Positions 26,077-57,000 of a stretch of DNA of 64,000 nt are shown in pieces. Position numbers and translations under genes: made by a program. Each line of letters starts with the position of its first letter. The first letter of the stretch is position 1. The notes under the pieces were generated by a model. That model worked only from the letters and a program-made list of their open reading frames with translations. It did no database searches and was not told where the DNA came from. Origin of the DNA: an uncultured Desulfospira sp. (GTDB lineage: Bacteria > Desulfobacterota > Desulfobacteria > Desulfobacterales > Desulfobacteraceae); NCBI GenBank assembly GCA_963663165.1, contig OY760175.1:5920001-5984000 (forward strand), read 5' to 3'.

Positions 26077-26077
26077 C

Positions 26078-27505: not shown

Positions 27506-27514
27506 GATTTTCCT

Positions 27515-39323: not shown

Positions 39324-40724
39324 TTAGTGGCCTAAGCAAAGTGACCGAATTTGTATGAAGATATTGTCAGTCAAGATGTTCCACCTCCCGGAAAGGAGCT
39401 GACTCCTTAAGAACAACATTGATTCGGATGTTTCCGGTTTCCAGAATATACCCGGTGATTTCATTCTGAGATTTATAACCCGACGTATTGCACTTTCAAC
39501 ACAGCCGCTGCCAGTAGGTATTTTCAGGCTGCGGAACTGGCGATACTGCATTCTGTTTCGATTTTTCACGAAGTAACTTTTAAATTTGGATAGTGCTTCT
39601 ATGCGCCTTTTAGGGTACGTAATGTGTTTTACAATTTCTTTTCTAAGGTCTTTGAATCTGCCATCCCAAAGGAGGTTCTTCCAAGATTCTGCTATCCGGT
39701 TTCTTTCTTTTATAGGGATTCTCTTTGGCAATTTGTCCACGATTTCATGTAAATTCTGTTTTGCATGGGTGTAGTCGATTACCTCATAATAGGATTCGAT
39801 TTCAAGCCGTTTGGCCAGCGGGCCTGTTCGCTTCCAATAGCTACGTGCACCGTCACAGCAGAAAACAACACGCTTGGCTTTGGGAATATCTAATTCACGC
39901 AAGTAGATCTCAAGAATATCAAAAGCGGCATCAATACCGCCCATTGTGGCATCATAAACCGGCAAGTGTTTTTTGGATATTGTGCCGTCCGGATCGACAA
40001 TATGTATGACAAACTGAATGGGTTCTTTCCATTCAGTATGATATCCCTGCCGCTTTTGGCCTTTTGATTTACGTCCCCGTTTTGGCCTCCGTTCTCGAAG
40101 GCGACCGCCGTCGATACAAACCAGAACCGTTTTGCCACCAACGCGATCAGTATCTCCAAAAGATACCCGGCCACGCAGGGGCATAGCTTCCTGTGCAAGA
40201 TTCATTGTTATGCGGCGTATGGTTTTGACATTTAAGTTGATTGCATGGTTTTCCAGGGATCTTCGGGCAATTTCAAAAGAGGGGCAGAGCAATGCTGCAT
40301 GGACCACCGACGAAGCGAACAGCGTTGAACACCTGCCGATAAAACCAAGGTAATCAAGCCCAAAATGGCGGCCTGTCCCCTTTTGTCGTTTTTTTGTTTT
40401 AGGGCCTGGCCGTTGTTTGGAAACAACTTTTGAAAAGTAAGGGGATCGGATGCTCAGGGTAGTTCCTGTCAATAATCGAATGCTGCTGGGGCGGTATCCG
40501 TTGAAACGCAGTCCCTTTTTACCGGCACCAATTTTCAGTTCAGATAAAAGATCCGGGTCAGACAGTGCCTTTTCAATGACGGGAACCAGAAATGCTTCCA
40601 CAATAATGAAGAGGCCGTTCCGTAACTGCTCACACAGGATATTAGCATTTTGATGGTTTTGGAAATCAGCTACGGCTTTTGTTAGAAGGGTTCGAATATC
40701 CCTTATAGTGGAAGCAAGTTTCAT
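39324..40724 (-). CDS. DDE transposase (ISKra4/ISLre2-like)
   Basis: CIDGG, CCDGA, IDYTHA, IPTGSGCVESAIRRVINLRMK..G..W. Confidence 0.85.
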   Translation of the reverse strand: MKLASTIRDIRTLLTKAVADFQNHQNANILCEQLRNGLFIIVEAFLVPVIEKALSDPDLLSELKIGAGKKGLRFNGYRPSSIRLLTGTTLSIRSPYFSKVVSKQRPGPKTKKRQKGTGRHFGLDYLGFIGRCSTLFASSVVHAALLCPSFEIARRSLENHAINLNVKTIRRITMNLAQEAMPLRGRVSFGDTDRVGGKTVLVCIDGGRLRERRPKRGRKSKGQKRQGYHTEWKEPIQFVIHIVDPDGTISKKHLPVYDATMGGIDAAFDILEIYLRELDIPKAKRVVFCCDGARSYWKRTGPLAKRLEIESYYEVIDYTHAKQNLHEIVDKLPKRIPIKERNRIAESWKNLLWDGRFKDLRKEIVKHITYPKRRIEALSKFKSYFVKNRNRMQYRQFRSLKIPTGSGCVESAIRRVINLRMKSPGIFWKPETSESMLFLRSQLLSGRWNILTDNIFIQIRSLCLGH

Positions 40725-40781
40725 GATCAGTCCTCGAATTGCAGGTTGAAAAATTACCTGTCATTTCGATGACTGAAACCC

Positions 40782-41654
40782 TCAAGTTTGTGTGCATAGC
40801 TGCTTTTTATAATTGGAAGTCAACGGGTATACATAGATGTCTTTTATCGGCACCTGAAGTCTGTGGTGCCTGTCTTGACGGCTTCGCCCTTTGCTTTGAC
40901 CAATTTTTTGCCAATTTGCCGCCTGGTAGCAAGTTCCGGCAAAGCGTGATCGATCCACGAAAGTTTCTACCAGACAGATATCGTGACCATATTTAGCTGT
41001 CCAGTCCCGGCTCAGCCGCCTAAGACATGAACCCAGAATATGACTGGCAAGATGGGGAATTCGAATCCATGGCAAAATCAAAAATCGGGTATTGTTGGTC
41101 GTCATATGCAGGTTCCTGCGACGAGCCGACCTATCCCAACCGATGAATCGGTCACGAGGGGCCGTTTTCCATGCTGCTGAGCCAAAAAGCAGGCAGGCAA
41201 CCGGACGAGAATTGCGATCAAAAGCCATATACTTCATATGTTCTCCGACATACCCTTTACACCCAAGGTAATGATATCGATCCATAAGGCAATGGAATAA
41301 ATCATCAATATCTCCACGGCCCGATACCGGTATCAATTGTATCGGGCGGATCTTACGCAAAGTGGTTTCTATCGGCTTACAATCATGGGGGACATCGGGA
41401 ATACGCCGCTGACGGTTACCGCTATGACGGGCAACGGGAAGTGTGACCATCCCTTTTTGCTCAAGTTTTCTCAGCATGCTTCGACAGGCCATGTCCTTGA
41501 GCAGACCTTTTTCCGTGCGCCAATCCCAGCGAGCACACAATTCTTTGGATAAACGAGTGCGGTGCCAGGCGGGATTGTCGTTAATCAAATGGCGTATCGT
41601 TTGTATATCAACTTCTGAAAATTCACGTCCTTGAATGGTTAAAGTCCTGCTCAT
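40782..41654 (-). CDS. DUF4338 (DruA-like) protein
   Basis: RYHYLG, RDRFIGW, NNTRFLILPW, HLASHILG, ETFVD..RF.GTCYQAANW..IG...GR.RQD. Confidence 0.88.
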   Translation of the reverse strand: MSRTLTIQGREFSEVDIQTIRHLINDNPAWHRTRLSKELCARWDWRTEKGLLKDMACRSMLRKLEQKGMVTLPVARHSGNRQRRIPDVPHDCKPIETTLRKIRPIQLIPVSGRGDIDDLFHCLMDRYHYLGCKGYVGEHMKYMAFDRNSRPVACLLFGSAAWKTAPRDRFIGWDRSARRRNLHMTTNNTRFLILPWIRIPHLASHILGSCLRRLSRDWTAKYGHDICLVETFVDRSRFAGTCYQAANWQKIGQSKGRSRQDRHHRLQVPIKDIYVYPLTSNYKKQLCTQT

Positions 41655-41995
41655 GCAAATCTATATAACCTTTCATGAGCCAGGAGTCCAGCTTTTTTTG
41701 GGAGGGCAGAGTATTCAATGCAGCATGAAAAACGGAAAAATTGGATACATGTCAGTTCATGCCACTAAATGGGATTGCACCCAGGCCTGACTAAACAAAT
41801 ATGAAGCACTGATGAACAGTTACGGACCCTTGTTTTGCTTAGTTTTCAGCATTAGCTGAATAGTTACAATTAATGTTTCGTTATGGGCGAATTTGGGATG
41901 TTGAGAGTCAAACCTTGATGATTGTATCTTAACCGTTATTGCAAACATCAAGGTTTGACTCATTTTTCACAAGGGTGTCTATCCGTTATTCCAAA

Positions 41996-43732
41996 TTAAG
42001 GACATGCACACCCACCGCAAGTGCATTGGATTATCAGTTTCCTGGCGTCTCTTACGGTAATTTTTCCATCTGCGTCCATATCGCATTCAGGACAGGCATC
42101 GGCCGATGCCCTCAGATATTGCCTGAGGATTTGAATATCACTTTTATCCACGGTCCCGTCATCATTCAGATCCCCCTTTAGGGGTGCCATATCGACAACC
42201 GCGAATTTTCCATCATGATCCAGGACAGCCCAGACTGTGTTAGCGGCTGTATCAACGCCATATGAACCCAGGCCGTAACCGGATTCCCAGGGCCCCTGGA
42301 CCAGGCCGGGAGTGCTTTGGGATGCATTGGCGGCCACCGCCCGTTCCCAGGTATTGCCGTTAAATCCTGCCAGCCGGAGCCCGGATTCGTCATCCATCAG
42401 GGTGTCGTCATAGGAGACTTGAAGCACAAAGGTGTCGGTGGGCGTATCCGGGCTGTCTGACATCCCGTTAAGGACAAGGATATCCCCGGCAGGGGTACGG
42501 CCGCTTTCGGCGTCCTCTATAGCGCCGGCGGTCTGCCATCCAAAAGAAACCAGATTGCCCATCTGGCTGGTAACCGGCGTGATTCCTTCATCCGGATCCG
42601 TGGTGACTTCTTCATAGGTTGTATTTGTTCCCTCCAGAATGACCGCTTGGGTTCCGGCAAACCCGTCACCCTCCTGGATTTCACTTCCAAGCTGTGCATA
42701 GGAGCCATTGGCCTGTACCGCATACTGGCTGCCGTTGGTCGAATAAACTGTCCGGTCGACAATGGTCCATTCCGGGGTCCAGACCTCGTTGGGATCCTGG
42801 GGATCGGGATGGGCAGAGGAATAGTGTTCGATGGTGACAAAAGATCCGTCAACGGTTACGATGGTGTAACCAACCTGGTCGTTGATCTGCTTGAAACCAA
42901 CTTCATCGCCGGTGTTGATTTCATATTCAAACCGGTAATATTTTTCAGCGTTGGAGCCGGTGATCAAATGCTGGAGCAAAAAATTTTCGTCTTTAATCGC
43001 CGCAGACCGGCTGTACTGGTGGTCATGGCCGGAAAAATATGCTTCGGCACCGTTGGCTGCCATGCCTTCTATCAGTATCATCCGGTAGGCCGTGGCGTCC
43101 AGAACCCCTTCTCTTGCACGGCCAAAAAGGGGTTCATGGGCAAAGACAAACATGTGATCATTGTCCCCAATTTCAATGGAGAGTATCCAGTTCATCAGGG
43201 CACTGGGGGCGGCACCGTATAAATCTATGGCTACAAATCGGACGTTGTTATAATCAAAGATATAGGAAGCCCCGGGGCCGCGCTGCACGATGGGGTTGTA
43301 TTCACTGCTGCCAGGATCAAGATAGGGGAATTTGCTGTCCCAGATGTCGGTCAGCGCGATGTCTACGTCACCATAAAGGGGATCAGCAATTTGAGTCTCT
43401 TCCTCTGATCCGTCATCATGATTTCCCCTGATGGGGAATACGTCAATTCCGGCATCGTATAGCGGGGCGGCTGTCGTAAGCCACTGGTCGAATTCAGTTG
43501 AACCGCCCTTGTCGGTTAAATCCCCGACATGCATCATCATGTCCACCTGATGAACATTGACCATTCTGTCCACCACAGGCCCCATCAACCGGACCGAAAC
43601 CCCGTTCAGGCTCACGCCTGCGGCCCCGCCTGACTGGGTATCCGCCATAATGCCAAACCGCCATTGGGCACCGGCCTGGGCCGGAAACCACAATCCAAAG
43701 ATACACATAAAAACAATGAACAATTTTTTCAT
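41996..43732 (-). CDS. Secreted metallophosphoesterase with C-terminal dockerin-like domain
   Basis: Signal peptide; ADTQ, GDLTD, GNHD, GHDHQY motifs; tail GDLNDDGTVDKSD...DMDADGKITVRDAR. Confidence 0.88.
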   Translation of the reverse strand: MKKLFIVFMCIFGLWFPAQAGAQWRFGIMADTQSGGAAGVSLNGVSVRLMGPVVDRMVNVHQVDMMMHVGDLTDKGGSTEFDQWLTTAAPLYDAGIDVFPIRGNHDDGSEEETQIADPLYGDVDIALTDIWDSKFPYLDPGSSEYNPIVQRGPGASYIFDYNNVRFVAIDLYGAAPSALMNWILSIEIGDNDHMFVFAHEPLFGRAREGVLDATAYRMILIEGMAANGAEAYFSGHDHQYSRSAAIKDENFLLQHLITGSNAEKYYRFEYEINTGDEVGFKQINDQVGYTIVTVDGSFVTIEHYSSAHPDPQDPNEVWTPEWTIVDRTVYSTNGSQYAVQANGSYAQLGSEIQEGDGFAGTQAVILEGTNTTYEEVTTDPDEGITPVTSQMGNLVSFGWQTAGAIEDAESGRTPAGDILVLNGMSDSPDTPTDTFVLQVSYDDTLMDDESGLRLAGFNGNTWERAVAANASQSTPGLVQGPWESGYGLGSYGVDTAANTVWAVLDHDGKFAVVDMAPLKGDLNDDGTVDKSDIQILRQYLRASADACPECDMDADGKITVRDARKLIIQCTCGGCACP

Positions 43733-43787
43733 TTGTCCCTCCTCAATTTAATATTAATATTTTCGTTTAAAATTGAATAATCGATAT

Positions 43788-43818
43788 GCGTTAGTCCCGA
43801 ATTAGAAAATCATTAAAA
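43788..43818 (-). promoter_or_regulatory. 7-4-7 direct-repeat box (Pho-box-like architecture)
   Basis: TTTTAAT-GATT-TTCTAAT-N7-TA; nearly identical to 51838-51868. Confidence 0.55.
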
Positions 43819-43978
43819 GAATGATATAACGGACAATGGAGGATGCTTTGAGGGATCACATATTTTCGGTGCGCCTGTCTGTAAGAACAGATGGCTCAAC
43901 ACGGGGGAAACCATCAGGTTCTCCAAAGGAAATTTTATTTTTAAAACAACTCATATTCCTTACATCAATCTAGTATTT

Positions 43979-44007
43979 TTCTATCTGGATTCAAATTAAT
44001 TTCTAAC
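43979..44007 (+). promoter_or_regulatory. Triple 11-bp-period repeat box upstream of the PEP-CTERM/5'-nucleotidase operon
   Basis: TTCTATC-TGGA-TTCAAAT-TAAT-TTCTAAC. Confidence 0.4.
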
Positions 44008-44290
44008 CGCCGACATATACATTTTTACCTGATCATCTTTAATTTGAAGACAGCAGCCATTAAGATACCGATATTATTGGTTCGAAACCGGGAACGGATT
44101 AATATCCACTTCCTTAACCTGCCATGAAAGCCATAATGTATTCTGCATTAAGCTTTTGTTATAAAACAAAATATTTTAATAAAGGGGGTGGTATTCCACA
44201 TTTATATTAACCAAATCCTTCCCAAAGTCCGGGAAGTTGTTTTTAAACCGTTCAAGTTTATATTTTTATTTATTCTAAGGAGAGTTTATC

Positions 44291-44812
44291 ATGAAAAAAT
44301 TTAAGATTGTCCATGTATTACTGTTTGTATTCCTTATGGGTTTGATTTCCTCAACTTCCGCATCTGCAGCAAGTATTTCTTACTCGTTTACCGATCTGGG
44401 AGACCAGCAATGGCAGATTGACTATCAGCTGACGGATTTTAATTCAGATGTCTATGACGGGGTTACCATTTATTTTGATTACAGCCTCTATGGGTCCATT
44501 GGTCTGACCAGCTATGACGAAGAGGCCTGGGATATTTTGGTTGTTCAGTCGGAGGAGGATATCCTGGGTGTCAGCGACGATGGATACGTTGATGTGCAAC
44601 CACTGAACCATGGCGGTATACTGACCGGAACCTTTTCCGTTACGGTAACCCTGCTCTCAGATGAACAACCCGGTTCCCAGGGATTTGAATTGTATAACGA
44701 AAACAACTGGGATGAGGTTGCCACCGGCACAACCTCTCCGGTGCCTGTCCCCGGTGCCCTGAGCCTTTTGATGGCCGGTCTTTGCGTCCTGGCCATGGGC
44801 AAAAGAAACTAA
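44291..44812 (+). CDS. Small secreted beta-rich protein with PEP-CTERM/VPLPA-type sorting signal
   Basis: Signal peptide; C-terminal PVPVPGA + TM helix + basic KR tail; AAGGAG RBS. Confidence 0.88.
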   Translation: MKKFKIVHVLLFVFLMGLISSTSASAASISYSFTDLGDQQWQIDYQLTDFNSDVYDGVTIYFDYSLYGSIGLTSYDEEAWDILVVQSEEDILGVSDDGYVDVQPLNHGGILTGTFSVTVTLLSDEQPGSQGFELYNENNWDEVATGTTSPVPVPGALSLLMAGLCVLAMGKRN

Positions 44813-44836
44813 TTCACAATTTTAAGGAGAAACATC

Positions 44837-46996
44837 ATGAAAAAAAATATTGTTTATCTTCTGATTGTCCTTTTGAGCTTAACGTTTGGGGCCTCCATTG
44901 CCGCTGCGGATTTTTCCATTGAAAATTATACCCTGCAGAGCAAAAAACGGGTAAGCCGGACCGAATTTCTTTATACCTTTAAAGCAGATATTGTCAATTC
45001 CGGAGAAAACGCTGGCGGCGTAACCGCCACCCTTTCCAGCAGCGTTTCGAGCACCGTTGTTGTAGACGGCGAACTGGCCTTTGGCGATATTCAGGGCGGC
45101 CAGACCGCACAAAGCGAAGATACCTTCAGCATTCGCCAGAACCGCAGGGTTGCCTTTGATGCGTCCGCCCTTGCCTGGACATTTAATCAGACCAGCGACC
45201 ATATCCCGGTTGTGGTTAAACTCATCCACACCAACGACCATCATTCTCATCTGGACAGCTCCACCTATGAACTGACCCTTAACGGCACCGCCACCCAGGT
45301 GGAAATGGGCGGGTTTGCAAGCCTTGCCACCATTATCCAGGAAGAACGCAATGACAACAGCATCGTGGTCAACAACGGTGAACTTAACGGTACCCTGTAT
45401 TTTTCTCTTTTCAAGGGAGTTCCCGACTTCGAGGTGTTTAATCTGCTTGGCCTTGACGGATATGCTTTGGGCAACCACGAATTTGATGAAGGGGATGAGG
45501 GCCTGGCCGATTTGATCAAGATTGCCAACTTCCCCATTCTTTCCGCCAACATCGCCCCCCAGGAAGAAAGCCCCCTTTATGAAGTCAAAGACCGGATTCT
45601 GCCCTATGTCATCAAGGAAATTGACGGGGAACAGGTCGGTGTGATCGGCCTGCTCAAGGTCGAAAAGACCAAAAACTCCTCTCTTGTTTCCGATTATGTC
45701 ACCTTTACCGATGAAATTGAAGCGGCCAACAATGCGGTTGCCGAACTGCAGGCACAGGGAATCAACAAGATCATCATGGTTTCCCATGTGGGATATTACA
45801 ATGACATCCTTCTTGCCAAAAACATCCCCGGCCTTGACGTGATCGTGGGCGGTGACACCCACTCGCTTTTGGGGGATCAGACCGACCTTGAGGCCATCGG
45901 CCTGAGCCAGGATTATGATGGCCAGACCGGCCCCTTTGACGGGTATACCCATGACGGCATTGAAGAAGAAGAAACCCTGGGCGAATACCCCACCACCGTC
46001 ACCGGTGCTGACGGGAACCCTGTTCACGTGGTCCAGGCCTGGTGCTATGCCTATGGCGTTGGAATCCTGAACATTGAGTTTGATGCCGATGGTGCTGCCA
46101 CTGCTGCCCAGGGCAACATCCACATCCCTGTGGCAGGCCCCTTTCTCCAGAAAGATGAAGAATCCAACAGCATGGTGGAAGTTTCCGATGAGGTCAATAC
46201 CCAGTTGCTGGCCGCCATTGCTGCGTCCCCCATCCTGACCGAGGGTGAGGTGGACTCACAAGTGGATGCCCTTTTGGCCCCCTACCGCGTGGATATGGAA
46301 GAGTCCATGAATACGGTGATCGGTTACATTTCCGTAACCATGCCTTATACCAGAATCCCCACGGCATTTGCCCAGGGTGAAACCCCCACGGGCAGTTATG
46401 CTGCCCAGGTGGTCAGCAATGCTTTTAAAAGCACCAACCCCGGAATTGACTTTGCCATTCAGAATGCCGGCGGTGTGAGAACCCAGCTTCTTCAAGGCGA
46501 ATTTACGGTTGCCGAAGCCCTGGAGTGCCTGCCCTTTTCCAACACCGTTGTCACCATCGAAATGACCGGTGCTGAAATCCGCCAGGTCCTCAATGAAGCG
46601 GCCTGGTATTCTCTGACCTCCGGTTCCACCGGTTCATTTCCCTATTCATCCGGGCTGCGGTACGATGTAAATATAAGCAATGCAGATGCCGATAAGACCG
46701 CAGAAGAGTGCGGGGTCATCTACAACATTGAAATGCTGGATGAAGAAACCGGCACCTGGGTTGCGCTGGATGAAACCCAAAGCTATACCGTTGCCACCAA
46801 TTCATTTACAGCCCTGGGCAAGGACAATTACCTGACCTTTAAAACGGTTCGGGATGCTGACCCCACAAAGTTTGAAGATACTTATATCAACTACTACCTG
46901 CCCCTTAAAGAGTACATTGAGGAGCTGCCCAACCAGACACTGCCCGCACTTGATAAAGACTCATACTGCCTGAAGTCCGTCATCGATGAAGACTAA
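44837..46996 (+). CDS. Secreted 5'-nucleotidase (UshA/NadN family) with an extra N-terminal ~95 aa beta domain
   Basis: HTNDHHSH, GNHEFD, SHVG, GGDTH, QNAGGVR, LPFSN motifs; signal peptide. Confidence 0.9.
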   Translation: MKKNIVYLLIVLLSLTFGASIAAADFSIENYTLQSKKRVSRTEFLYTFKADIVNSGENAGGVTATLSSSVSSTVVVDGELAFGDIQGGQTAQSEDTFSIRQNRRVAFDASALAWTFNQTSDHIPVVVKLIHTNDHHSHLDSSTYELTLNGTATQVEMGGFASLATIIQEERNDNSIVVNNGELNGTLYFSLFKGVPDFEVFNLLGLDGYALGNHEFDEGDEGLADLIKIANFPILSANIAPQEESPLYEVKDRILPYVIKEIDGEQVGVIGLLKVEKTKNSSLVSDYVTFTDEIEAANNAVAELQAQGINKIIMVSHVGYYNDILLAKNIPGLDVIVGGDTHSLLGDQTDLEAIGLSQDYDGQTGPFDGYTHDGIEEEETLGEYPTTVTGADGNPVHVVQAWCYAYGVGILNIEFDADGAATAAQGNIHIPVAGPFLQKDEESNSMVEVSDEVNTQLLAAIAASPILTEGEVDSQVDALLAPYRVDMEESMNTVIGYISVTMPYTRIPTAFAQGETPTGSYAAQVVSNAFKSTNPGIDFAIQNAGGVRTQLLQGEFTVAEALECLPFSNTVVTIEMTGAEIRQVLNEAAWYSLTSGSTGSFPYSSGLRYDVNISNADADKTAEECGVIYNIEMLDEETGTWVALDETQSYTVATNSFTALGKDNYLTFKTVRDADPTKFEDTYINYYLPLKEYIEELPNQTLPALDKDSYCLKSVIDED

Positions 46997-47031
46997 GGGT
47001 ACTTGAAAGAAAAAGTCTTTAATTTTTAATT

Positions 47032-47080
47032 AGCAAAGGAGCAGGGGGGACATTGTCCTTTCTGCTCCTTTGCTTTTTTT
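47032..47080 (+). terminator. Intrinsic terminator
   Basis: agcaaaggagcag...ctgctcctttgct followed by T-run. Confidence 0.75.
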
Positions 47081-47087
47081 CCTTAAC

Positions 47088-47154
47088 AAGTGGTGTCAAC
47101 CCTTTATTATTGTATCATAATCGGTATTCCAATAATCACGGGTTGACACCACTT
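47088..47154. repeat. Perfect 15 bp inverted repeat, 37 bp spacer
   Basis: aagtggtgtcaaccc ... gggttgacaccactt. Confidence 0.75.
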
Positions 47155-47252
47155 TCCCCTATCTTTATGCCACTCGGCTTAAAAAAAATATCCCGGGCCA
47201 GACGGCCCGGGATAAGGAATCCATTAAATTTTCGGAATCGGGAATTTAAAGC

Positions 47253-47774
47253 TTAGGCGTCTTTTCTGGCCAGTCCGGCCAGGCCCAGCATACCCAAACC
47301 CAGAAGAACAATAGCCGAAGGAACAGGAACCGCTTCTACACTCAGGTCTTGATGATCAATGCTGAAGGCAGCGGTCCCGTTATCAATGGCGGTAAAAGAC
47401 AAGGTTGCCAGGGTAAAGGAATCTGGCTGGGATGCCAGCAGCTCGGAAGCGGACAGGTAGGATATCACACAAAGATTGACAAGGCCGTCCACGTATTCTC
47501 CTTCACTATAGTCATCGGCTTCAAAATCATCAATGCTTCCAAGCCAGTCAGAAAGCGTGTAATCGCCAAATGCAAGAACGCCGGAATCAAAGGCAACATC
47601 AATGTCAAAACCCCCCAGGATGGTGGTGCCGTCAAGCCCTGAGATAACCAGGTCCAGCGTAATTACATCGTCTGTAGAAACGGTTGCAGAATCAATGGAA
47701 AGAGACAAAGTGGCGGCCTGGGCGGAAACCGCTAAAACCAGGAAAGCAATGGTGGTTAACATAAATTTTTTCAT
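47253..47774 (-). CDS. Cohesin-like domain protein with PEP-CTERM/VPLPA-type sorting signal
   Basis: Signal peptide; V...D.ITLDLVISG....LGGFDIDVAFDSGVL.F ... LATLSFTAI..G cohesin pattern; AVPVPSA + TM + RK. Confidence 0.8.
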   Translation of the reverse strand: MKKFMLTTIAFLVLAVSAQAATLSLSIDSATVSTDDVITLDLVISGLDGTTILGGFDIDVAFDSGVLAFGDYTLSDWLGSIDDFEADDYSEGEYVDGLVNLCVISYLSASELLASQPDSFTLATLSFTAIDNGTAAFSIDHQDLSVEAVPVPSAIVLLGLGMLGLAGLARKDA

Positions 47775-47870
47775 GGGACTTCTCCTTTTTTAATTTTTTT
47801 TCATGGGTCCTCTCTTCATCACTTGAAGAGTGAATTTTACAGTTTATAATATCCGGGCTTTATGATCCCC

Positions 47871-47901
47871 GTAATAGCCGAATGTTATAATTTGGTTTGA
47901 T
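47871..47901 (-). promoter_or_regulatory. 7-4-7 direct-repeat box upstream of the cohesin gene
   Basis: ATCAAAC-CAAA-TTATAAC-N7-TATTAC. Confidence 0.4.
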
Positions 47902-47906
47902 TTGTA

Positions 47907-47936
47907 TTCAAGGTCCCGGATGGCCGGGACCTTGAA
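47907..47936 (-). terminator. Hairpin after the tandem phosphatase gene
   Basis: ttcaaggtcccgg-atgg-ccgggaccttgaa. Confidence 0.65.
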
Positions 47937-47973
47937 TTTTCAATGGGTTATCTTAACCGTTCCGGTGCGGCTG

Positions 47974-50900
47974 TTAATCCAGCTGAAACTGGTCCATGAT
48001 ATAGACATCAGTATCCGGATCATCCGTATCATAGGCATAGGTGGTCACCGTACCGTCTTCCGTGTTCAAAATGGTGAAGGCCGTTACCGTGTTGCTTGAA
48101 AGATAGGGCAGGTAACCCAGCGCATCTTCCTGGGGTGCAACATTGGGCGTAATCGGTTCAAGGCCGTAAGGGTCATCATACGCATCATAATCATCGGCAT
48201 TCCAAGGAGAACCCGGTGTCCCGGAACGGGAAGACCGGCCGGTAACGTAAGAACCATAGGAATTTCCAACATTGGAGGTTTCCAGGTAGTTCACGCCGGT
48301 AGCGCCCTTGAAGCGGTTCCAGACATGGTCATGGCCATTAAATACCAGGTCCACCCCGGCCTCTTCGAGCAGGGGCTCGATATCCCGGATCAGGTGGCTG
48401 CCGCTTTTGGGGTACTCATACCGGATGCTGGTGATATTGCCGTCATCATCGGTTTCCACTGTCCGCACAGGGTCTGTAAATGCGGGAACAATATTGTCTC
48501 CCAGGCTGTGCAGGGGATGATGAAGCATCACAATCGTATATTTGGCCGCCTTGAATTCATCACTGGCCAGTTCATTTTTAAGCCATTCATACTGATCGGA
48601 ACCTTCTTTGATGGGCTCAAAAATGTGGCGGCCCCAGCCTTGTTCCATCTGATCATCATAGTTGGAAGATGACTCGACATAGGTGCTGGTACCGGTGGCA
48701 ACCGTGCTTTTCCCCCGCCAGATACGAGTGACATACAATGAAATCAACCGTACATCCCCAAAGGTAACCGCGTAATATTTTTCATTGCCTTTGTCGTTTT
48801 CAGGCAGGGTGAAGATCTCCTGGTAGGTATCGGTATTAAAGGTATTGTCTTTTATCCACGCTTCCTTAACGGCTTCACTGCCGGAGGGGTTCACTGTGTC
48901 CGCCACGGTTTCATAAGCTGCTTGCGCCACTGCCACAGGTTTGGGGTCGTTGAACTGGGTGCTTAAGCTATTGCCGTTTTTGACCCGGCCCATGACTTCA
49001 TGGTTTCCGATTACAGGATAAATCGGGGCATTCTGAATGATCTTGCCGCCTTTATAGGTGGTGGTGAATCCGTTGGATTCCAGGGTCCGGGCCGCGGTTC
49101 CCTGAAGACCCGGGAAAAATGCGCCGCCCACAGTGTTGTCAAACCACTCTGACGCCCGGTCAGGGACGTTGACCAGGTCACCGGCAAAAAATACCGCATC
49201 CACGGTACCAAACATCTCTTCTACTTTCTGCATGTTGGCTGGGGTCATGGGTTTGGACTGATGATCAGAGGTCAGAAGGATCAGGTTGGATGTGCCGGTT
49301 GCCGGTTTGGGGGTCATGGTGTACCCGTCACTGACAATCATGGCACCGCAGTCATTAAAACTAATGACCGCATAGGGAACACGCACGCCTTGTACAAGCC
49401 CTGCGGCGACAGCTTCATGCCGCCAGATTTGCCGGTCCGTCACATCGGTATAGGTCTTATCCGGCACGCTGGAGCTTGCATCCTCCCGGGTCCGGCTCAG
49501 CGCCATGGTCTGGGCACTGGCAATCTGAATATCGGCATGGTCCGCAGCAAACGCCTGAATATCAGACCAGTCCAGATCCTCTTGAACCAAAAGCGCCTCT
49601 AAGCCGTTTCCGTAAATCAGGGCATGATCGTCACCCTCATATTCCGTAAACCAGACAACATTAACGGAATTTTCAGAAGGGAGCTGCAAAAAGGGCTGTG
49701 TCAGCAGTTCAGCATTTTCACAGCACTTTTTCAGAGTACAGTTTGTAACCACAATTCTGGCATCCCGGGTATTAATTTTGCCATCCCCATTCAGGTCATA
49801 AAGGGGATAATCTTCTGCAGACTGGCGCAGGTACTGGCGAATGAGGGCCACATCATCACAATCCGTGTCCCCGTCGTCATCCAGATCCGTTACACTGCGG
49901 GTCAGGACGGTTACATCATCATAGGTTCTTCTCTCATACATGGGCAGGCCATTTTCATCCCGCCGTACATCCCCGTTTTCGTCCATAAGGGGAAACACAT
50001 AGACCGGGGTGAGTTGGGCCTGCCATTCGCCATTTTCCAGGTGAACGTTGACTTCCAGGTGACCGTAATGTTTTCCACCGTCAACCAGCTGGCTGCCGGA
50101 CCAGGTTTCAGGGGCGTTCAGATGGGCCAGAAACACCTGGTGATCATTGTTGCTGGGCAGGTCATATAATCCATCTTCGCCCATGTAAGGTCCGCGCAGG
50201 CCGTCGCCGCCAATGCCCACATCGAAAAAGTGGATGCCCTCCACCAGGGAATGTTCATACATCTCGTCGTGGCCATTAAACACGGCATCCACGCCATAGG
50301 TTTTAAACAAAGCGGTCAGTGTCCGCATGGGCACGCCGGACTGGGTATCCTCTCCGCCGCTCTGGCCGGCACTGCCGGCTTTAAATCCGTGGGGGCCTAC
50401 AGAGTAGGGGGAGTGGTGGAACTGGACAAAGATAAAGCGGCTGGTCTCTTTGGCGTCTGCCAGCTGGGCCTCAAGCCAGGTGTACTGGTCGGAACCGGGG
50501 TTGAAGTCCGGGGCCTCGCCCTCGCCCCAGGCTTCGTTATCCTCTGAAGACTCACCTTGGCCCAGCAGGTACCAGTTGGTGTCCTGTCCGGTTTTGTTGG
50601 GGCTGCCGTTGCTGGAATCAATGGTAATATAGGTGATGGGGCCGTAATCTACACGGTAGTAACGTCCCTGGAGTTCTGCCTTGCCGGAGCTGTTGTCCGG
50701 GGTTGAAAAATAGGTGCGGTACCGGGCCATGGCCTCTTTGGCCAGGGGCGTGGTGTAGGAACCGCCGCCACCGTCGCCGCCGGCATGGTTCTCATGATTT
50801 CCCACGGCAGGCAGGATGGGCACATGTCCTGCAATGTCATTGTAAGAACCGGCATTATGGCGCCAGAATTCGTCCCAGTCCCGCTGCTCGTTGCCGGCTT

Positions 50901-51473
50901 CCACAATGTCACCGGCAATGGCAATGAAATCAGGGTTTCTGTCTTCCATGGTCTGGATATTGATCTTATACCCGTCGGTCTGGTCCAGCCAGTACTGGCG
51001 GTCGTAATCTCCGTAAGGCTCGGAGCAGCGCCGGGTTTTACCGGTGGATTCGGGTTCGGTTTCCGAATCGGCATATACTATGAACCGGACATCTCCGTCT
51101 GCCAACGGTGCGGTTTTCATGGTGCTGCTGTAGGTTGAGTCCCCCTGGGTCACCGTATAGGTGTAGGTGGTTCCGGCGCTCAGCCCTTCAACAACAACCC
51201 GGTGCAGGTACGGGGCACCCGGATCAGTACCGCCATAATATTTGTAATCTCAGTGGAATAATAGGCCAGATCCGAAGCCAGTACCGGGGCGCTGGAAAAG
51301 GTTCCCACCCCCTGAACGGTGATTGACCCGGCCTGGCTGGATTCAGACAGCCAGGTTACGGTCATGGCATCTGTCTTGGGATTCTGAAGATAGGGGGTGA
51401 CCCGGAAATCTTCAGCCCAGCAGACAGAGGCGGTGATTAAGGCGACAATAAGAACAACAAAAAGCTTTCTCAT
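47974..51473 (-). CDS. Secreted tandem purple-acid-phosphatase-like protein with internal dockerin; 1-nt frameshift near 51241
   Basis: Signal peptide + FN3/PAP-N (51473-), two catalytic sets (ADSE/GDIVE/GNHE/GHDE and SDHQ/GDLVN/GNHE/GHDH), dockerin at ~49715-49887. Adding one A in ACA-AA-TAT joins ORF 51180-51473 to ORF 47974-51153. Confidence 0.85.
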
Positions 51474-51495
51474 AATATTTTCTCTCTCTTTTTTT

Positions 51496-51575
51496 GTGAA
51501 AGTCTCACTAACATCTTGAGAAGACGTTCATTTTTTGTTGTGGACGGTTCTTGGTTGGATAATTCAAGCTGTCCG
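51496..51575 (-). repeat. Two-hairpin ~80 nt element, copy 3 (5' of the tandem phosphatase)
   Basis: gtgaaagtctcactaacatcttgagaagacgttcat + ggacggttcttggttggataattcaagctgtccg. Confidence 0.8.
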
Positions 51576-51837
51576 TGACGGTTTATAAAAATGGAATCAT
51601 CCGCTGTTGTTTGCCCTGGAACGGCCAGATCCATTCCGGGCTTGATGGCACAGCGGCAGGCCATAACACATGTAAAATTTACAAATGGGGTTTTAAGCGG
51701 GGTAAAAAGAAACAACAAACTTAAATTTTTTAGCCTACCACCTCCTTTCACTAATGATCAGCAGGATAGGAACTCCTCCTTATTTTTCTTAAAAGCGAGC
51801 CGTACGAAGATCGACCTTTATTTTTTTTACAGGACAA

Positions 51838-51868
51838 ACACTAGATGGGAATTAGAAAATGATTAAAA
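51838..51868 (-). promoter_or_regulatory. 7-4-7 direct-repeat box with -10-like hexamer
   Basis: TTTTAAT-CATT-TTCTAAT-N7-TAGTGT. Confidence 0.55.
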
Positions 51869-52255
51869 TTAAAAACAGTGATGGAAAAAGGATGGAAACC
51901 CGCTTTAGTCCTGGCATTGTTTGCCATTATAGTTCATCCCTGAAGCAGGGCGGCAACCGTTAAAAATTGATTGCCGAACCGGAATGCCCCTTTATTCGGA
52001 CAATTGCGGGCCCCCATAACGGTCTCATTGTTTGCTCATCGAATTGTAGTTTTTTAGCAGCATGTGAGCAAAAAAAATCGGGCTGCCCTGGGAAAAAATC
52101 CCAAGGCAGCCCGGATAAAATTTGAGGGGGCATCCCGATTATCGGCCGGGGCCATATTCCCGGCTTTTGTTAGTTTTGCATCCTTTGGTTGACACAGAGG
52201 AAGTTCCTGGCTTATGGTCATAATTGTTTTGCAGCCAACCATTACGGAGGCCGGG

Positions 52256-53260
52256 ATGAACAAGATGGCAGGAAAGCCAGGGATTTGGGCAGGAACCTAT
52301 AAGGTATTCGGCCTGGGATTTCTGATTTTGGCCATTGCTTTTTTATCCGGCCCAAAGGTGGTCATGGATACCCGGTTACAGCCTGTACACCTTCCCAAAG
52401 ATCTTGATGCATATGTGGCGGATTCTGAATCTGCCTTTGACGACATTGTCCCGGGGGCGGAAAAACGGATTTTTTGGGCAGGAGAGACGCATGTTCAGAC
52501 CCCGTTCTCGGTGATTTATCTTCACGGGTTCTCCGCCACTCGCCAGGAGACGGCCCCGCTGCCGGAGATGATCGCAAAACGGCTGGGCGCCAACCTGTTC
52601 TGCACCCGCTTTACCGGCCATGGACGTACTGGCCAGGCCATGCTGAACGGCAGTGTCAACGCATGGCTCAATGATGCTGTGGAGGCCTTGAAAATCGGGC
52701 AGCGGATCGGTGAAAAGGTCATTGTAACCGGGACCTCAACCGGCGGCACCGTGGCCGCCTGGCTGGCGGCTCAGCCGGTGGCAGCGGATGTTGCGGCATT
52801 TATCCTGATCTCCCCCAATTTCGGCCTTGCCAACAGGATGTCCAAAATTCTGCTCTGGCCATGGGGCAGACATCTTGCCGAGCTTATTATTGGTAAGGAA
52901 AGGTCTTTTGAACCGGATAATCCCGCCCATGGAAAATTTTGGACCCACCGGTATCCTACCCGGGCCCTGCTGCCCATGATGGGGCTGGTCAGCCTGGCCG
53001 GGGATTTGGATATGTCCCGGATTAAAGCGCCGGTACTGGTCATTTACTCCCCTGCCGACCGTGTGGTAGATCCTGCCCGGACAAAAAAGGTATTCAAAAA
53101 ACTGGGCTCAAAACAAAAACAATTGATCCCCTATACCGGGTCAGATGACCCGGATCAGCATGTGCTGGCCGGCGACATTCTGTCTGCCAGTTCAACAAAG
53201 GCCCTGGAAACCATGATCGTTGATTTTATTGCCGGGAAAACCCAAAGCAGTAATCCGTAG
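52256..53260 (+). CDS. Membrane-anchored alpha/beta hydrolase
   Basis: YLHGFSA, GHG, GTSTGG nucleophile elbow, D.VV, H.LAG. Confidence 0.88.
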   Translation: MNKMAGKPGIWAGTYKVFGLGFLILAIAFLSGPKVVMDTRLQPVHLPKDLDAYVADSESAFDDIVPGAEKRIFWAGETHVQTPFSVIYLHGFSATRQETAPLPEMIAKRLGANLFCTRFTGHGRTGQAMLNGSVNAWLNDAVEALKIGQRIGEKVIVTGTSTGGTVAAWLAAQPVAADVAAFILISPNFGLANRMSKILLWPWGRHLAELIIGKERSFEPDNPAHGKFWTHRYPTRALLPMMGLVSLAGDLDMSRIKAPVLVIYSPADRVVDPARTKKVFKKLGSKQKQLIPYTGSDDPDQHVLAGDILSASSTKALETMIVDFIAGKTQSSNP

Positions 53261-54135: not shown

Positions 54136-55155
54136 TCATAAACTGTCAAGCCAGGCGAGGATTTCAGCACTATTTCCCCAGTCGATTAACTCATCAATTT
54201 TTTTGTCATGAGTTATTTTCGATTGCATGTATTCCATGAGCGTATTTTGGACTTCCCGTTTTTTTGACAGATCCAGCTGCAGATAGGTCATTGTTGATTC
54301 AATACTTTGATGACCAAGACGATTTTTGATATCCGATACCGGAGCACCTGAACTGACCATGTTGACCGCGCACGAATGCCTGAAGCAGTGAGCCGGGCTC
54401 AGTCCTTTCAGCCGTTTTTCCGGCAAGGCCAAGGTCAAATACTTCCTGCAAATTTTATTAATTCCATGTCTGGTCATTTCCCGCTTCCGTTGATTGATAA
54501 ACAGCCTATGGGCAAATAAAGGGATGGGATCTACCCTGTGATTGCTGATATAGTCCGAGATCAAGGAGGCGGTTCTGGAGCATAGATTAATCAACCGGTA
54601 TCGGTTTCCCTTTCCCAGGACCGCAATGGTTTCGTTTTCGGGGTCAAAATAATCAAATTCCAATGTGGCAATTTCACTGGCCCGGGCACCGGAGTCATAA
54701 AGCAGATGGAGAATGGTAAAATCCCTCATGCCTTCTTTCTTTTTCAGATCAACGGCACTGAAGACTTTCATGATTTCTTCAGGATATAAAAATCCCATCA
54801 CCTTTTTTTGAGCTCTTTTCTGAGGGATGTTCAGGAGCCTATCGGCAATTCGTTTTTTATCCGGATGCATGAAGCGGATCATCTTGGCCAAAGACTTAAT
54901 CACGGCCAGGCGTTGGTTTCGAGTCTGCACGCTATTTTTTCGGTTTTTTTCCAGATGCTGGAGAAAGGCAAGCACTGCATCCACCGTTAAGTGTTCGATT
55001 TTCAATGACTTGATTTTTATTGAGTGATGATTCGCCAGAAAATGCAGAAATAACGACAGGCTCTGCTGGTAAGCTTGAACACTTTGTTTGCTCGTCCCTT
55101 TTATCGAGGGCAAGTATTCATAAAAATACTGGTGCAGGCAACTTGTCAATCTCAT
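54136..55155 (-). CDS. Tyrosine recombinase (RitC-like)
   Basis: TRNQRLA, SGARASE, GKGNRYR, HCFRHS, LGHQSIESTMTY. Confidence 0.92.
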   Translation of the reverse strand: MRLTSCLHQYFYEYLPSIKGTSKQSVQAYQQSLSLFLHFLANHHSIKIKSLKIEHLTVDAVLAFLQHLEKNRKNSVQTRNQRLAVIKSLAKMIRFMHPDKKRIADRLLNIPQKRAQKKVMGFLYPEEIMKVFSAVDLKKKEGMRDFTILHLLYDSGARASEIATLEFDYFDPENETIAVLGKGNRYRLINLCSRTASLISDYISNHRVDPIPLFAHRLFINQRKREMTRHGINKICRKYLTLALPEKRLKGLSPAHCFRHSCAVNMVSSGAPVSDIKNRLGHQSIESTMTYLQLDLSKKREVQNTLMEYMQSKITHDKKIDELIDWGNSAEILAWLDSL

Positions 55156-56129
55156 GCACCCTCGCTTTTTGATTTCGAAAAATCAAACAGTTGCCAACGG
55201 TGCTCAGCATCCAGTACCTTCAAATAATAGGTTGTGTATTTGTATTTGCTGTGCCCCATATAAGCCGCCAGTACAGGCAGGGCATTTTGGCAGGATTTTC
55301 CTTGCTGTTTTATCCTTTTCAGCGTGTTCACAGCAAACGAATGCCGCAGGGAATGATGTGAAGGCTGGCTGAAGTTTGTAGTACCGATTATTTTCCGGGA
55401 GTGATCAAAATTAATATCTGTGAGAGCCTGTTTAAATCTGCGATTTATAAACATACGTACCAGTTTTTTCCCTTTCACCTTTACCAGCAAAAAAGGGCTG
55501 TCATCCTCATCAGGGAATAACCGGCGAACTTTTAGCAGGTTGTTGATTTCATAGGCTACGGCTTTGGGTATAGGGATCAATCGATCTTTTCTAAATTTTG
55601 TCTTTTCAATATAGATTGTTCTTTCTTCGGGCCTGTAATGGGTTTTCAATAAATTAAGTGTCTCCGAGGTTCTAAGTCCGCACCGGGCCATCAACAAAAA
55701 GGCTATATAAGCACTGAAATCTGACACATAGAATCTCTGGCTTGTCCGCATCGACTTGATTACAGCTTTGAGAAAACGGTCTGTTTCTTCCGGAGAAAAT
55801 ATAAAAGGAATAACGTGATTTTCCTGTAGCTCAGTGATTTCCTGCAACGGATTTTCCAGGATCACATCTTTGCGTATAAGATAATTGAAAAAGATCTTGA
55901 GCATTCTAAAAATCGTATTTATGGACCGGGGTTCAAGATCAAGTTCTGCTCTGAACCGGATAAAAAACAGCGGATCAAAGGATGTCCAAGTCACTTGTTT
56001 TTCAGACACATATCGATCAAGTACCCTAAGACCGTACATCATTGAGGTGTTTGAGTACCCCAGTTGAAAACGATATGTGATAAAATCCTCCATTTGTTCA
56101 GCCAAGAAACTTTTAAAACGTTTCATCAA
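55152..56129 (-). CDS. Tyrosine recombinase (RitB-like)
   Basis: PFIFS, CGLRTSE, TKFRKDRLIP, HSLRHSFAV, LAAYMGH...T.YY. Confidence 0.92.
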   Translation of the reverse strand: MMKRFKSFLAEQMEDFITYRFQLGYSNTSMMYGLRVLDRYVSEKQVTWTSFDPLFFIRFRAELDLEPRSINTIFRMLKIFFNYLIRKDVILENPLQEITELQENHVIPFIFSPEETDRFLKAVIKSMRTSQRFYVSDFSAYIAFLLMARCGLRTSETLNLLKTHYRPEERTIYIEKTKFRKDRLIPIPKAVAYEINNLLKVRRLFPDEDDSPFLLVKVKGKKLVRMFINRRFKQALTDINFDHSRKIIGTTNFSQPSHHSLRHSFAVNTLKRIKQQGKSCQNALPVLAAYMGHSKYKYTTYYLKVLDAEHRWQLFDFSKSKSEGA

Positions 56130-57000
56130 GGATAACCTCCCGCATCAGGCCGATATGAATGCTCAGATACTTTTTTGTCGAATCGAGGCTTTTATGTCCC
56201 ATCATTTCTTTGATTTCATAGATGGACATACCGGACTCCAACATATTCTGGGCAAATGAATGCCGCAGCCAGTATGTGCTTGATCCAAGATTGTTTTTCG
56301 TCATGCATTCTTTTATATCTCGGGGGATATCGCTCCTGTTGGCCGGTTTATAAGGTGGTGTCAACTGTAAAAATAGAACTCGGGATTGAGTTTCAGGTCT
56401 CCCGCCCACAATATAGGCAGTGATCGCTTTGATTATGTTATCGGGAAGGGGAAGATGAGCAGGATTGCAATTTTTTCTTGAACGGATAAAAATCTCTTTC
56501 TGTCTAAATGAGATGTCATCCAGAGTTAGCAACCTGATTTCTTTCGGCCTTAACCCCAGATAACATGCCAGATGCAGGGTGGCATTGGTGCGAAGGTCTT
56601 TTGCTGTTGACAGGTCCAGACTGTCAAACAACTTTTGAATTTCATGAGTGCGCAAAAATTTGGGCGGCTTTGGTGGTCCGAACTCCGGAGGGCTTACCAC
56701 TAAAGCGCCAAGGTCCTTTTTAAGATCTCCGTGTTGATAAAGGTACTTTAAAAATCTTCGTACATGTGACCGGTGCGTCCTGCATGTCCCGGGAGCACGC
56801 CCCTTGTTGCAGACTGCTAAAAATTGATCGACCTGGTCAATGGATATGTTGCCCAAAGAGGTGTTTTCCCCCTGAAGATAGGCCGCAAAATTTGTTAATG
56901 TCCTTTTTGTATAGGACACCGCATCCCCGGAAGCTTGATCTCGACAGTAGTCCAGGTATTTCTCCACTGCTTTGGTGACCTTATTGTCAACTTCCATCAT
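56113..57000 (-). CDS. Tyrosine recombinase (RitA-like, short)
   Basis: PKFL, LGLRPKEI, LRHSFA, MGHKSLDSTKKY; GGAGG RBS before ATG 57000. Confidence 0.88.
   Translation of the reverse strand: MMEVDNKVTKAVEKYLDYCRDQASGDAVSYTKRTLTNFAAYLQGENTSLGNISIDQVDQFLAVCNKGRAPGTCRTHRSHVRRFLKYLYQHGDLKKDLGALVVSPPEFGPPKPPKFLRTHEIQKLFDSLDLSTAKDLRTNATLHLACYLGLRPKEIRLLTLDDISFRQKEIFIRSRKNCNPAHLPLPDNIIKAITAYIVGGRPETQSRVLFLQLTPPYKPANRSDIPRDIKECMTKNNLGSSTYWLRHSFAQNMLESGMSIYEIKEMMGHKSLDSTKKYLSIHIGLMREVILDETF

Follow-up and report, generated by a model that had tools for sequence, protein, structure and literature searches.

As textbooks have it, the cellulosomes of Gram-positive anaerobes are put together by pairing cohesin with dockerin modules. 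What, then, is a small cohesin with an exosortase-type sorting tail doing among secreted phosphoesterases of a double-membraned bacterium? The locus that raises this question belongs to an uncultured Desulfospira sp. (assembly GCA_963663165.1, contig OY760175.1, positions 5,920,001–5,984,000); coordinates below are positions in this stretch of 64,000 nt, here called the window. Five genes, A to E, span 41996–51473, with A, D and E on the minus strand and B and C on the plus strand. An earlier reading of the same DNA (the original prediction) took them for a 'phosphatosome', in which D, a one-cohesin scaffoldin, tethers phosphate-scavenging enzymes to the envelope; its coordinates and motifs for all five genes are correct, so that the observation is confirmed, and its interpretation is partly supported. 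We put at roughly 60% the probability that D is an exosortase-sorted socket with a single cohesin, which likely takes up the dockerins of E and A and would hold one enzyme per copy of D. The cohesin–dockerin link is well supported by comparison among genomes, and the locus is read as one example of a general plug-and-socket cassette that is made of two genes and found in Gram-negative bacteria. The three proteins and the modules concerned are the following.

A, 41996..43732, minus strand: secreted metallophosphoesterase of 578 aa with a C-terminal dockerin and a Cys-rich end
Dockerin module of A with the trailing motif Q-C-T-C-G-G-C-A-C-P, 41999..42178, minus strand: Pfam match at residues 519–567 (42032–42178), and subtype alignment
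D, 47253..47774, minus strand: protein of 173 aa with a signal peptide, a single predicted cohesin module (residues ~22–148) and a tail of VPVP, hydrophobic helix and basic residues
E, 47974..51473 (frames 47974–51153 and 51180–51473), minus strand: secreted protein with two metallophosphoesterase stretches and a dockerin between them
Dockerin module of E, followed by the Cys motif N-C-T-L-K-K-C-C, 49750..49890, minus strand: Pfam match at residues 422–468, and alignments

Predicted cohesin fold and sorting tail of D

The AlphaFold2 model of D, built on a 27-sequence alignment, has a pLDDT of 89.1 and a pTM of 0.75. A Foldseek search of the PDB with this model gave cohesins only in the rows listed through rank 50, the best being 6kgf_C (E 1e-6), and VIA-align superposed 119 residues on CaCohA2 (6kgc_A) with a Z score of 12.8, a root-mean-square deviation of 2.2 Å and 17% identity, rows 1–45 all being cohesin or cohesin-like modules. 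By its modelled fold, D is a cohesin, that is, a nine-stranded jelly-roll beta-sandwich minus the last strand, which agrees with the cohesin-like beta-sandwich that the original prediction had proposed for the 47253–47774 product. The accompanying caveat that the module looks short at its last strands was also correct: D and its same-genus ortholog are without a segment of about 20 residues that precedes the tail elsewhere in the family, and the structural alignments with reference cohesins reach only to about residue 128 of 144, which is why the last strand is taken to be missing. Against the Pfam model Cohesin (PF00963), two paralogs of D in this genome score 29.9 bits (L069, above the cut-off) and 19.8 bits (L063), and the ortholog of D in the same-genus genome G001 has a precomputed PF00963 match.

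The tail of D, read directly from the sequence, is AVPVPSAIVLLGLGMLGLAGLARKDA, and its sorting motif, VPVPS, differs from VPLPA. With the Pfam PEP-CTERM model it scores 19.4 bits by hmmscan (cut-off 20.7) and 23.0 bits, above the cut-off, in a six-frame search of the genome, which contains 62 PEP-CTERM sites at E<=0.1. Three Exosortase_EpsH matches were found genome-wide, none of them in the window: XrtD, a VPLPA-CTERM-specific exosortase fused to an EpsI domain (601.3 bits against a cut-off of 400), a second, generic exosortase (TIGR02602, 196.6 bits against 105.55) and a weak XrtH-like protein. The tail thus appears to be of the proposed class, PEP-CTERM/VPLPA, and an exosortase, which the window lacks, exists outside it.

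One dockerin subtype on the phosphoesterases of the genome

Both A and E carry a type I dockerin (PF00404) that lies above the gathering score and has two D-x-[ND]-x-D-G loops in the alignment; Dockerin_1 gives 36.6 bits in A (cut-off 22.9) and 25.6 bits in E, where the module stands between two Metallophos stretches of the 1059-aa frame. Both proteins also belong to the calcineurin-like metallophosphoesterases, since they combine a Metallophos (PF00149) score above the cut-off (49.4 bits in A, 78.6 bits in E) with metal-binding motifs of the types GD, GNH[DE] and GHxH, which read HVGDLTD, RGNHD and SGHDHQ in A and AGDIV, VGNHEN, NGHDE / AGDLV, IGNHEV, NGHDHV in E. E resembles an enzyme like A, with its phosphoesterase, dockerin and Cys motif, to which a second phosphoesterase has been joined. 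E and a paralogous locus at 1.30 Mb of the genome further resemble purple acid phosphatases (Pur_ac_phosph_N, 27.7 bits, below the cut-off of 30), and an Atlas search with A found generic metallophosphoesterase clusters only.

The break between the two frames of E is an assembly error. Independent contigs of runs X1, X2 and X3 have one extra base, a G on the plus strand at 51243/51244, which joins 51180–51473 and 47974–51153 into one gene; X1 and X2, which come from the same sample, contain a fraction of 0.99 of the sampled words, and X3 has another sample and organism label. With the extra base E reads ...EITKYYGG..., which matches the intact 1166-aa ortholog in G001, and E is therefore regarded as one secreted protein of about 1166 aa. 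The assembly may carry further single-base errors that mimic pseudogenes. NCBIfam matches of the 97-aa fragment to Shiga-toxin B models were rejected as chance (E > 0.01, 15 bits against cut-offs of 165–203).

A hidden Markov model (HMM) of the cohesin core found four paralogs in the genome, at 1.306, 4.707, 5.635 and 5.967 Mb (the last being D), all of them VPVP-tailed, and Dockerin_1 matched 23 sites in 19 genes. Five of these dockerins fall on alignment into a single subtype, ...LRQ.A...P..D.DGDG.ITVRDARK..., and several of them have a Cys motif behind it; the LRQ and RDAR residues that the original prediction had seen as common to A and E are those that define it. All five occur on Metallophos and/or choice_anch_I proteins: besides A and E, these are a purple-acid-phosphatase-like Metallophos protein at 1.30 Mb, a Metallophos plus choice_anch_I protein at 2.75 Mb and a choice_anch_I protein at 4.70 Mb, the domain choice_anch_I being counted as phosphoesterase-type because of its fusion with Metallophos. 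The literature consulted gave no confirmation that choice-of-anchor I proteins are annotated as alkaline phosphatases. Four of the five genes lie 0.2–3.5 kb from a cohesin paralog, whereas not one of the other 14 dockerin genes is within 6 kb of any of the four cohesin genes; counted by locus, this is three of four against none of the rest.

A broader association concerns PEP-CTERM genes of any kind, one of which was found within 5 kb of 11 of the 19 dockerin genes (1.3 expected; none of 5000 random placements reached 11), although these 11 genes cluster in eight loci and are not independent. Seven genes with dockerins of other subtypes, two of them for S8 peptidases, are within 6 kb of small PEP-CTERM proteins of ~190–250 aa, near 807 kb, 3.553 Mb, 3.625–3.629 Mb, 5.284–5.286 Mb and 6.103–6.115 Mb (the genes L042, L046, L047, L052 and L054–L056, with the neighbours L057, L059–L062 and L064–L068). 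Ten small PEP-CTERM proteins beside other dockerin subtypes showed no cohesin similarity by Pfam or hhalign; such neighbours may represent other socket folds, or no sockets.

Recurrence of the cohesin–dockerin pair in other genomes

In G001 the ortholog of D (87% identical) again follows the ortholog of E. When 401 genomes of the same class were searched with a profile, 50 had matches; many of these were matched in the tail only, and full-length matches came from about a dozen. From these results 19 flanks were taken, and these contain 15 loci with 16 clear cohesin open reading frames (ORFs). A dockerin gene lies on the same strand within 1.7 kb of the cohesin in 12 of the 15 loci. The three loci without one are L114, L116, which is apparently the counterpart of the cohesin at 5.63 Mb, and L118, a contig of 5.9 kb. 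A wider scan with one genome per species yielded 28 loci, one of them a repeat of a locus already in the set, from Oxalobacteraceae, several gammaproteobacterial families, Nitrospirales, Syntrophobacteraceae, Geobacteraceae, Myxococcota, Hydrogenedentota and a cyanobacterium. Of these loci, 23 are directly flanked by a dockerin ORF on the same strand (L152 among the 23 is doubtful, as that ORF overlaps the cohesin ORF in another frame), and in two of the five loci without a dockerin the cohesin is at a contig edge. The co-occurrence on which the original prediction staked itself is therefore found both within the class and beyond it.

The neighbouring dockerins are of the same kind as those of A and E: 36 of 36 score higher with an HMM of the five phosphoesterase dockerins than with an HMM of the 18 other dockerins of the Desulfospira genome, and they share the trailing motif C-T-x-x-x-C. 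A PEP-like tail was recognized by pattern match on 35 of 43 cohesin ORFs, several of the misses being truncated or variant tails. A itself, with its dockerin and Cys motif counted in, has 32% identity over 597 columns (E 3e-75) with a Massilia protein whose gene directly precedes a PEP-CTERM cohesin gene.

Pfam scans of the neighbouring dockerin proteins, in sets of 16 and 22, showed Metallophos domains in six (three from Massilia/Pseudoduganella, one from Syntrophobacteraceae, one from G249 and one from G001) and choice_anch_I in four. The others comprise FG-GAP, NHL, cadherin and PKD giants, an RHS/TcdB_midN/SpvB protein, an alpha/beta hydrolase, a CotH kinase, and proteins with GSDH or IgGFc-binding domains, together with several that have no family. 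Phosphoesterases are thus a recurrent cargo, and in the present genome they are the sole cargo of the subtype; from the diverse cargo of other genomes the cassette is therefore regarded as a general display module, and the idea of a module specific to phosphatases has to be dropped, given the adhesin-like giants, RHS/Tc-like protein, hydrolases and CotH kinase found elsewhere. In four giants beside PEP-CTERM cohesins (L144, L146, L148 and L150; hosts Nitrospirales, Paraglaciecola, Ectothiorhodospiraceae and a gammaproteobacterial metagenome-assembled genome) the subtype dockerin is N-terminal, at residues ~35–105.

The cohesin family is large. Out of 1.84 billion cluster representatives, a 34-sequence core profile matched 7053 at E<=1e-3, and 3197 at the stricter E<=1e-10. 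Of the top 150 representatives 148 were inspected: 122 are of at most 300 aa, and 100 of these 122 have a PEP-like tail. The remaining 26 (P0033–P0044, P0084, P0128 and others) are proteins of 468–2276 aa with three to nine cohesin stretches and no PEP-CTERM tail; three of them end in what we take to resemble the C-terminal domain of the type IX secretion system. True multi-cohesin scaffoldins of the family of D may therefore exist.

Interchange of dockerin and sorting tail in relatives of A

Relatives of A share a conserved enzyme end, ...GLGTYGVD...VWAV.D.NG.FAV, after which three continuations are found. Of 43 relatives, 14 continue with a direct PEP-CTERM tail (AVPEPS..., helix, RRRR) at the point where the dockerin of A is joined, two continue with a dockerin, and the others have neither by the patterns used. 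Thus the same enzyme is either exosortase-tailed itself or tagged with a dockerin, an alternation that would be expected if the dockerin leads to a PEP-CTERM-tailed partner. Among the tailed relatives, those of Methylobacillus and Methyloversatilis, with 50–52% identity to A, have AVPEPS..., a helix and RRRR at this junction. Such proteins are anchored in one piece, whereas the Desulfospira system would be in two pieces, an enzyme with a dockerin and a cohesin with a tail; the predicted final address is the same, and the two-piece form would let several enzymes share one type of anchor.

Proposed mechanism and alternative explanations

On the preferred reading, all the proteins would cross the inner membrane by means of their Sec signal peptides. 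An exosortase, most plausibly XrtD, would then process the VPVP tail of D, leaving D attached to the envelope or to the exopolysaccharide matrix. The calcium-binding dockerins of E, which is predicted to be co-transcribed with D, and of A would plug into D, and the tethered enzymes would free phosphate or nucleosides from external phosphoesters near the cell. Because it has a single cohesin, D is predicted to be a 1:1 tether and not a scaffold. The multi-enzyme complex of the original prediction does not stand, since D has one cohesin, C has no dockerin and B is not recognizably a cohesin.

Several observations weigh against this reading. D scores 22.0 bits with PF00963 (E 2e-4), below the gathering cut-off of 24.1, and the absence of the last-strand region from D and its ortholog might impair folding or binding. 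The tail of D is likewise below the cut-offs of TIGR02595 PEP_CTERM (14.7 bits, cut-off 16) and VPLPA-CTERM (TIGR03370; 18.0 bits, cut-off 25.35), and none of the NCBIfam models matches D above its cut-off; because of the VPLPA-CTERM score and the VPVPS motif, it is by inference that XrtD, most plausibly, and not another exosortase handles D. Two members of the genome-wide set stand alone, namely the subtype dockerin gene at 2.75 Mb and the cohesin at 5.63 Mb. A sequence search of solved structures with A and E matched only their dockerins. A is 3.5 kb from D, beyond the divergent B–C unit, and two other genomes of the genus have no dockerin-bearing ortholog of A, the best matches there covering residues 19–512 only, at 33–37% identity; for these reasons it is the dockerin subtype that links A to D. 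Finally, no Pho-regulon, pst or phoU family was found among the 47 neighbour proteins scanned (~8 kb around each of the four cohesin loci, plus the window; no search for Pho-box motifs was made), and the phosphate-scavenging role is therefore read from the enzyme families.

The pairing could be real and yet periplasmic, the helix of D staying as an inner-membrane anchor, or being processed without export, and the phosphoesterases working at the periplasmic face. UshA/NadN-type enzymes are classically periplasmic and C belongs to this type; all the proteins carry Sec-type signal peptides only, and the window showed no outer-membrane export system. However, the giant FG-GAP, cadherin and PKD adhesin-like and the RHS/Tc-like cargo of other genomes would fit an outside location better, and passages of PMC12188702 have exosortases trafficking PEP-CTERM proteins to the cell exterior, so that we hold the periplasmic arrangement to be improbable. 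Quite improbable, in our judgment, is that D and the dockerins do not bind directly at all, the dockerin-like modules serving for calcium-dependent stabilization or matrix binding, D being an independent matrix protein and the genes being neighbours through co-regulation. The sub-threshold Pfam score and the missing strand of D would fit this, as would the seven dockerin genes that lie within 6 kb of small PEP-CTERM proteins without cohesin similarity, because of which a dockerin beside a PEP-CTERM gene need not imply a cohesin. Against it, adjacency of a D-family cohesin and a subtype dockerin recurs across distant phyla with unrelated cargo, and dockerin and direct PEP-CTERM tail interchange on the same enzyme family; both seem hard to explain without a physical link.

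Another alternative accepts the tether and doubts the purpose. Metallophos (PF00149) proteins include nucleases and phosphodiesterases, and C is closest to an NAD nucleotidase model; the enzymes might thus act on the matrix (extracellular DNA, nucleotides, NAD or phosphorylated polysaccharide) in biofilm remodelling or nucleoside uptake. Exosortase systems have been linked with floc and biofilm formation in passages of PMC9850573 and PMC12188702, and the lack of Pho genes nearby would agree with such a role. The likeness of E and the 1.30 Mb locus to purple acid phosphatases points instead to phosphomonoesters, and we regard the matrix role as rather unlikely, if a serious candidate. The preferred reading also has a bolder form, which we entertain tentatively, at somewhat less than even odds. 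In this form exosortase-sorted cohesins of about 200 aa, in their thousands, and C-T-x-x-x-C dockerins for any secreted protein would make up a display system of its own across many Gram-negative phyla; the present genome would then have a true 'phosphatosome' of five phosphoesterases for the capture of organic phosphate at the surface or matrix, together with a second pair formed by B and the N-terminal domain of C.

Comparison with known systems

The system resembles the anchoring step of a cellulosome and is not a cellulosome: D has one cohesin, and no glycoside hydrolase or carbohydrate-binding module was found in the five genes or in the others scanned within 21009–62924, which upholds the absence of glycoside hydrolases noted earlier. 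Its closest parallels are the single-cohesin proteins that serve as cell-surface anchors in Gram-positive cellulosome producers, of which OlpA, OlpC and SdbA of Clostridium thermocellum are SLH-anchored and ScaE of Ruminococcus flavefaciens is sortase/LPXTG-anchored. Like D, these combine one cohesin with an envelope-anchoring signal and take up dockerin-bearing secreted proteins, and the structural search with D matched cohesins of such anchoring proteins as well (3ul4_A, Z 11.4; 4dh2_C, 11.0; 2bm3, 11.8; 2zf9_B, 9.1). In contrast to them, D has a PEP-CTERM/VPLPA tail and an exosortase in a double-membraned host, with no SLH, LPXTG or X-module; the cargo consists of phosphoesterases and not of glycoside hydrolases or scaffoldins, and the identity of D to these proteins is only 7–15%.

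The best structural match of D is the type I pair CaCohA2–CaDoc0917 of Clostridium acetobutylicum (PDB 6kgc–6kgf), and a sequence search of the PDB with either A or E has CaDoc0917 as the best match of the dockerin (E ~1e-4). CaCohA2 comes from a cellulosomal scaffoldin with several cohesins, whereas D is stand-alone and without the last strand; compared with CaDoc0917, the present dockerins add the trailing C-T-x-x-x-C, and that of A has a C-P-x-C insert. Non-cellulosomal modules of Archaeoglobus fulgidus (2xdh) and Clostridium perfringens (2vo8, 2jh2, 2w1n) match D at Z 10.9–11.8 and are likewise used outside cellulose breakdown (in C. perfringens, in glycosidase/toxin complexes), but none of them has an exosortase-type tail or phosphoesterase cargo.

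The function of non-cellulosomal cohesin and dockerin modules is given as not known in PMC5244752, which names dockerin and exosortase without connecting them. A literature search, with subscription journals outside its coverage, found no link of cohesin or dockerin with PEP-CTERM, nor of dockerin with metallophosphoesterase, and the cassette appears to be undescribed in the literature thus searched. The locus makes the question of such modules concrete and testable: its cohesin is small, easy to express and equipped with a sorting tail of the Gram-negative kind, the defined dockerins proposed as partners belong to enzymes that simple colorimetric assays can follow, and PEP-tailed enzymes of the same family provide a natural control. 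If the reading is true, plug-and-socket tethering in the style of the cellulosome would extend to double-membraned bacteria and phosphate-releasing enzymes, and in anoxic sediments phosphatase activity would be held on cells or flocs and not released, which matters for phosphorus cycling. If the binding holds, exosortase substrates would gain a function as sockets for other proteins, the retention of secreted enzymes and giant adhesins at the cell or matrix of double-membraned bacteria would be explained, and a new orthogonal plug-and-socket pair would become available for surface display.

Transcription units and the genes B and C

E lies upstream of D on the same strand with a spacing of 199 nt; a terminator scan found no strong terminator in the stretch between them, and a terminator-like hairpin exists only 3' of D. 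B ends 24 nt upstream of C, and this unit is convergent with E–D and has its own strong hairpin. The two hairpins are predicted to mark the ends of an E–D and a B–C transcription unit, respectively.

B, 44291..44812, plus strand: protein of 173 aa with a signal peptide, a beta-sandwich of a rare family and a PEP-CTERM-like tail
C, 44837..46996, plus strand: secreted NadN/UshA-like 5'-nucleotidase of 719 aa with an extra N-terminal domain of ~120 aa
Terminator-like hairpin after C, 47032..47074, plus strand: 20-bp stem and T-run
Terminator-like hairpin after D, 47189..47214, minus strand: 11-bp stem with 8 GC pairs, and T-run

An Rfam scan of 41000–52500 gave a single, sub-threshold match, to the hairpin after C, and nothing relevant; a scan for sigma-70 promoters was at chance level (14 found, 12.3 expected).

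C is a member of the 5'-nucleotidase family at the domain level (5_nucleotid_C, 100.3 bits, cut-off 23.6). It is closest to the NAD nucleotidase model and below the equivalog cut-offs (NadN TIGR01530, 395.9 against 436; PRK09558, 155.3 against 600). A Pfam scan showed no dockerin in C, and the evidence does not place this 5'-nucleotidase, which the original prediction had listed between the two enzymes, in the tether. B has a PEP-CTERM-like tail (15.8 bits, Pfam) and a middle domain without a family match; its family is rare, with five relatives among 5.8 billion proteins, and a metagenome scan for relatives matched the tail only. The AlphaFold2 model of B (pLDDT 80.2) is a beta-sandwich whose matches are mixed and tied, with VIA-align Z scores of 9.5 to YcnI and 8.6 to a cohesin, and a best Foldseek E of 3.4e-4 with TM <= 0.5. 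As a second cohesin B was rejected on sequence (hhalign against the cohesin profile, 0.2%), the fold leaving the two tied, and B is an unproven candidate for membership in the tether.

G033, the only one of 40 relatives with a match, has neighbouring genes (L156, 1438–3404) that correspond to B and the N-terminal domain of C (44291–45250 of the window). Its B-like domain is 33% identical (E 4e-20) and ends in a dockerin-like repeat where B has its PEP tail. At the start of the next gene is a domain that shares 37% identity (E 2e-25) with the first ~130 residues of C. B and the N-terminal domain of C could possibly form another, unnamed plug-and-socket pair, a lead that comes from this single further case.

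Other features of the window and genome

The A–B–C block, which is missing at the corresponding place in G001, may have arrived recently. Between thyX and A (39324–41654) lie a DruA-like (Druantia) gene and a gene for an unassigned 466-aa protein, three tandem tyrosine-recombinase genes are downstream of the locus (54136–57165), and a type I restriction-modification system is located at 24607–30889. Directly upstream of the start codon of E, at 51490–51590, is a repeat of ~95 nt that has 248 blastn matches in the 6.74-Mb genome, no Rfam match, and 100–300 times the flanking depth in read-based contigs; it is possibly an element of the repetitive extragenic palindrome (REP) or miniature inverted-repeat transposable element (MITE) type. 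At 4703242–4706741 of the genome (L051, L072), an LRR_5 protein (406 aa) and a choice_anch_I–dockerin protein (729 aa) are encoded by separate ORFs, and the G001 counterpart (L115, 9669–12776) is one ORF of 1035 aa, a difference that reflects either a real split or an assembly indel.

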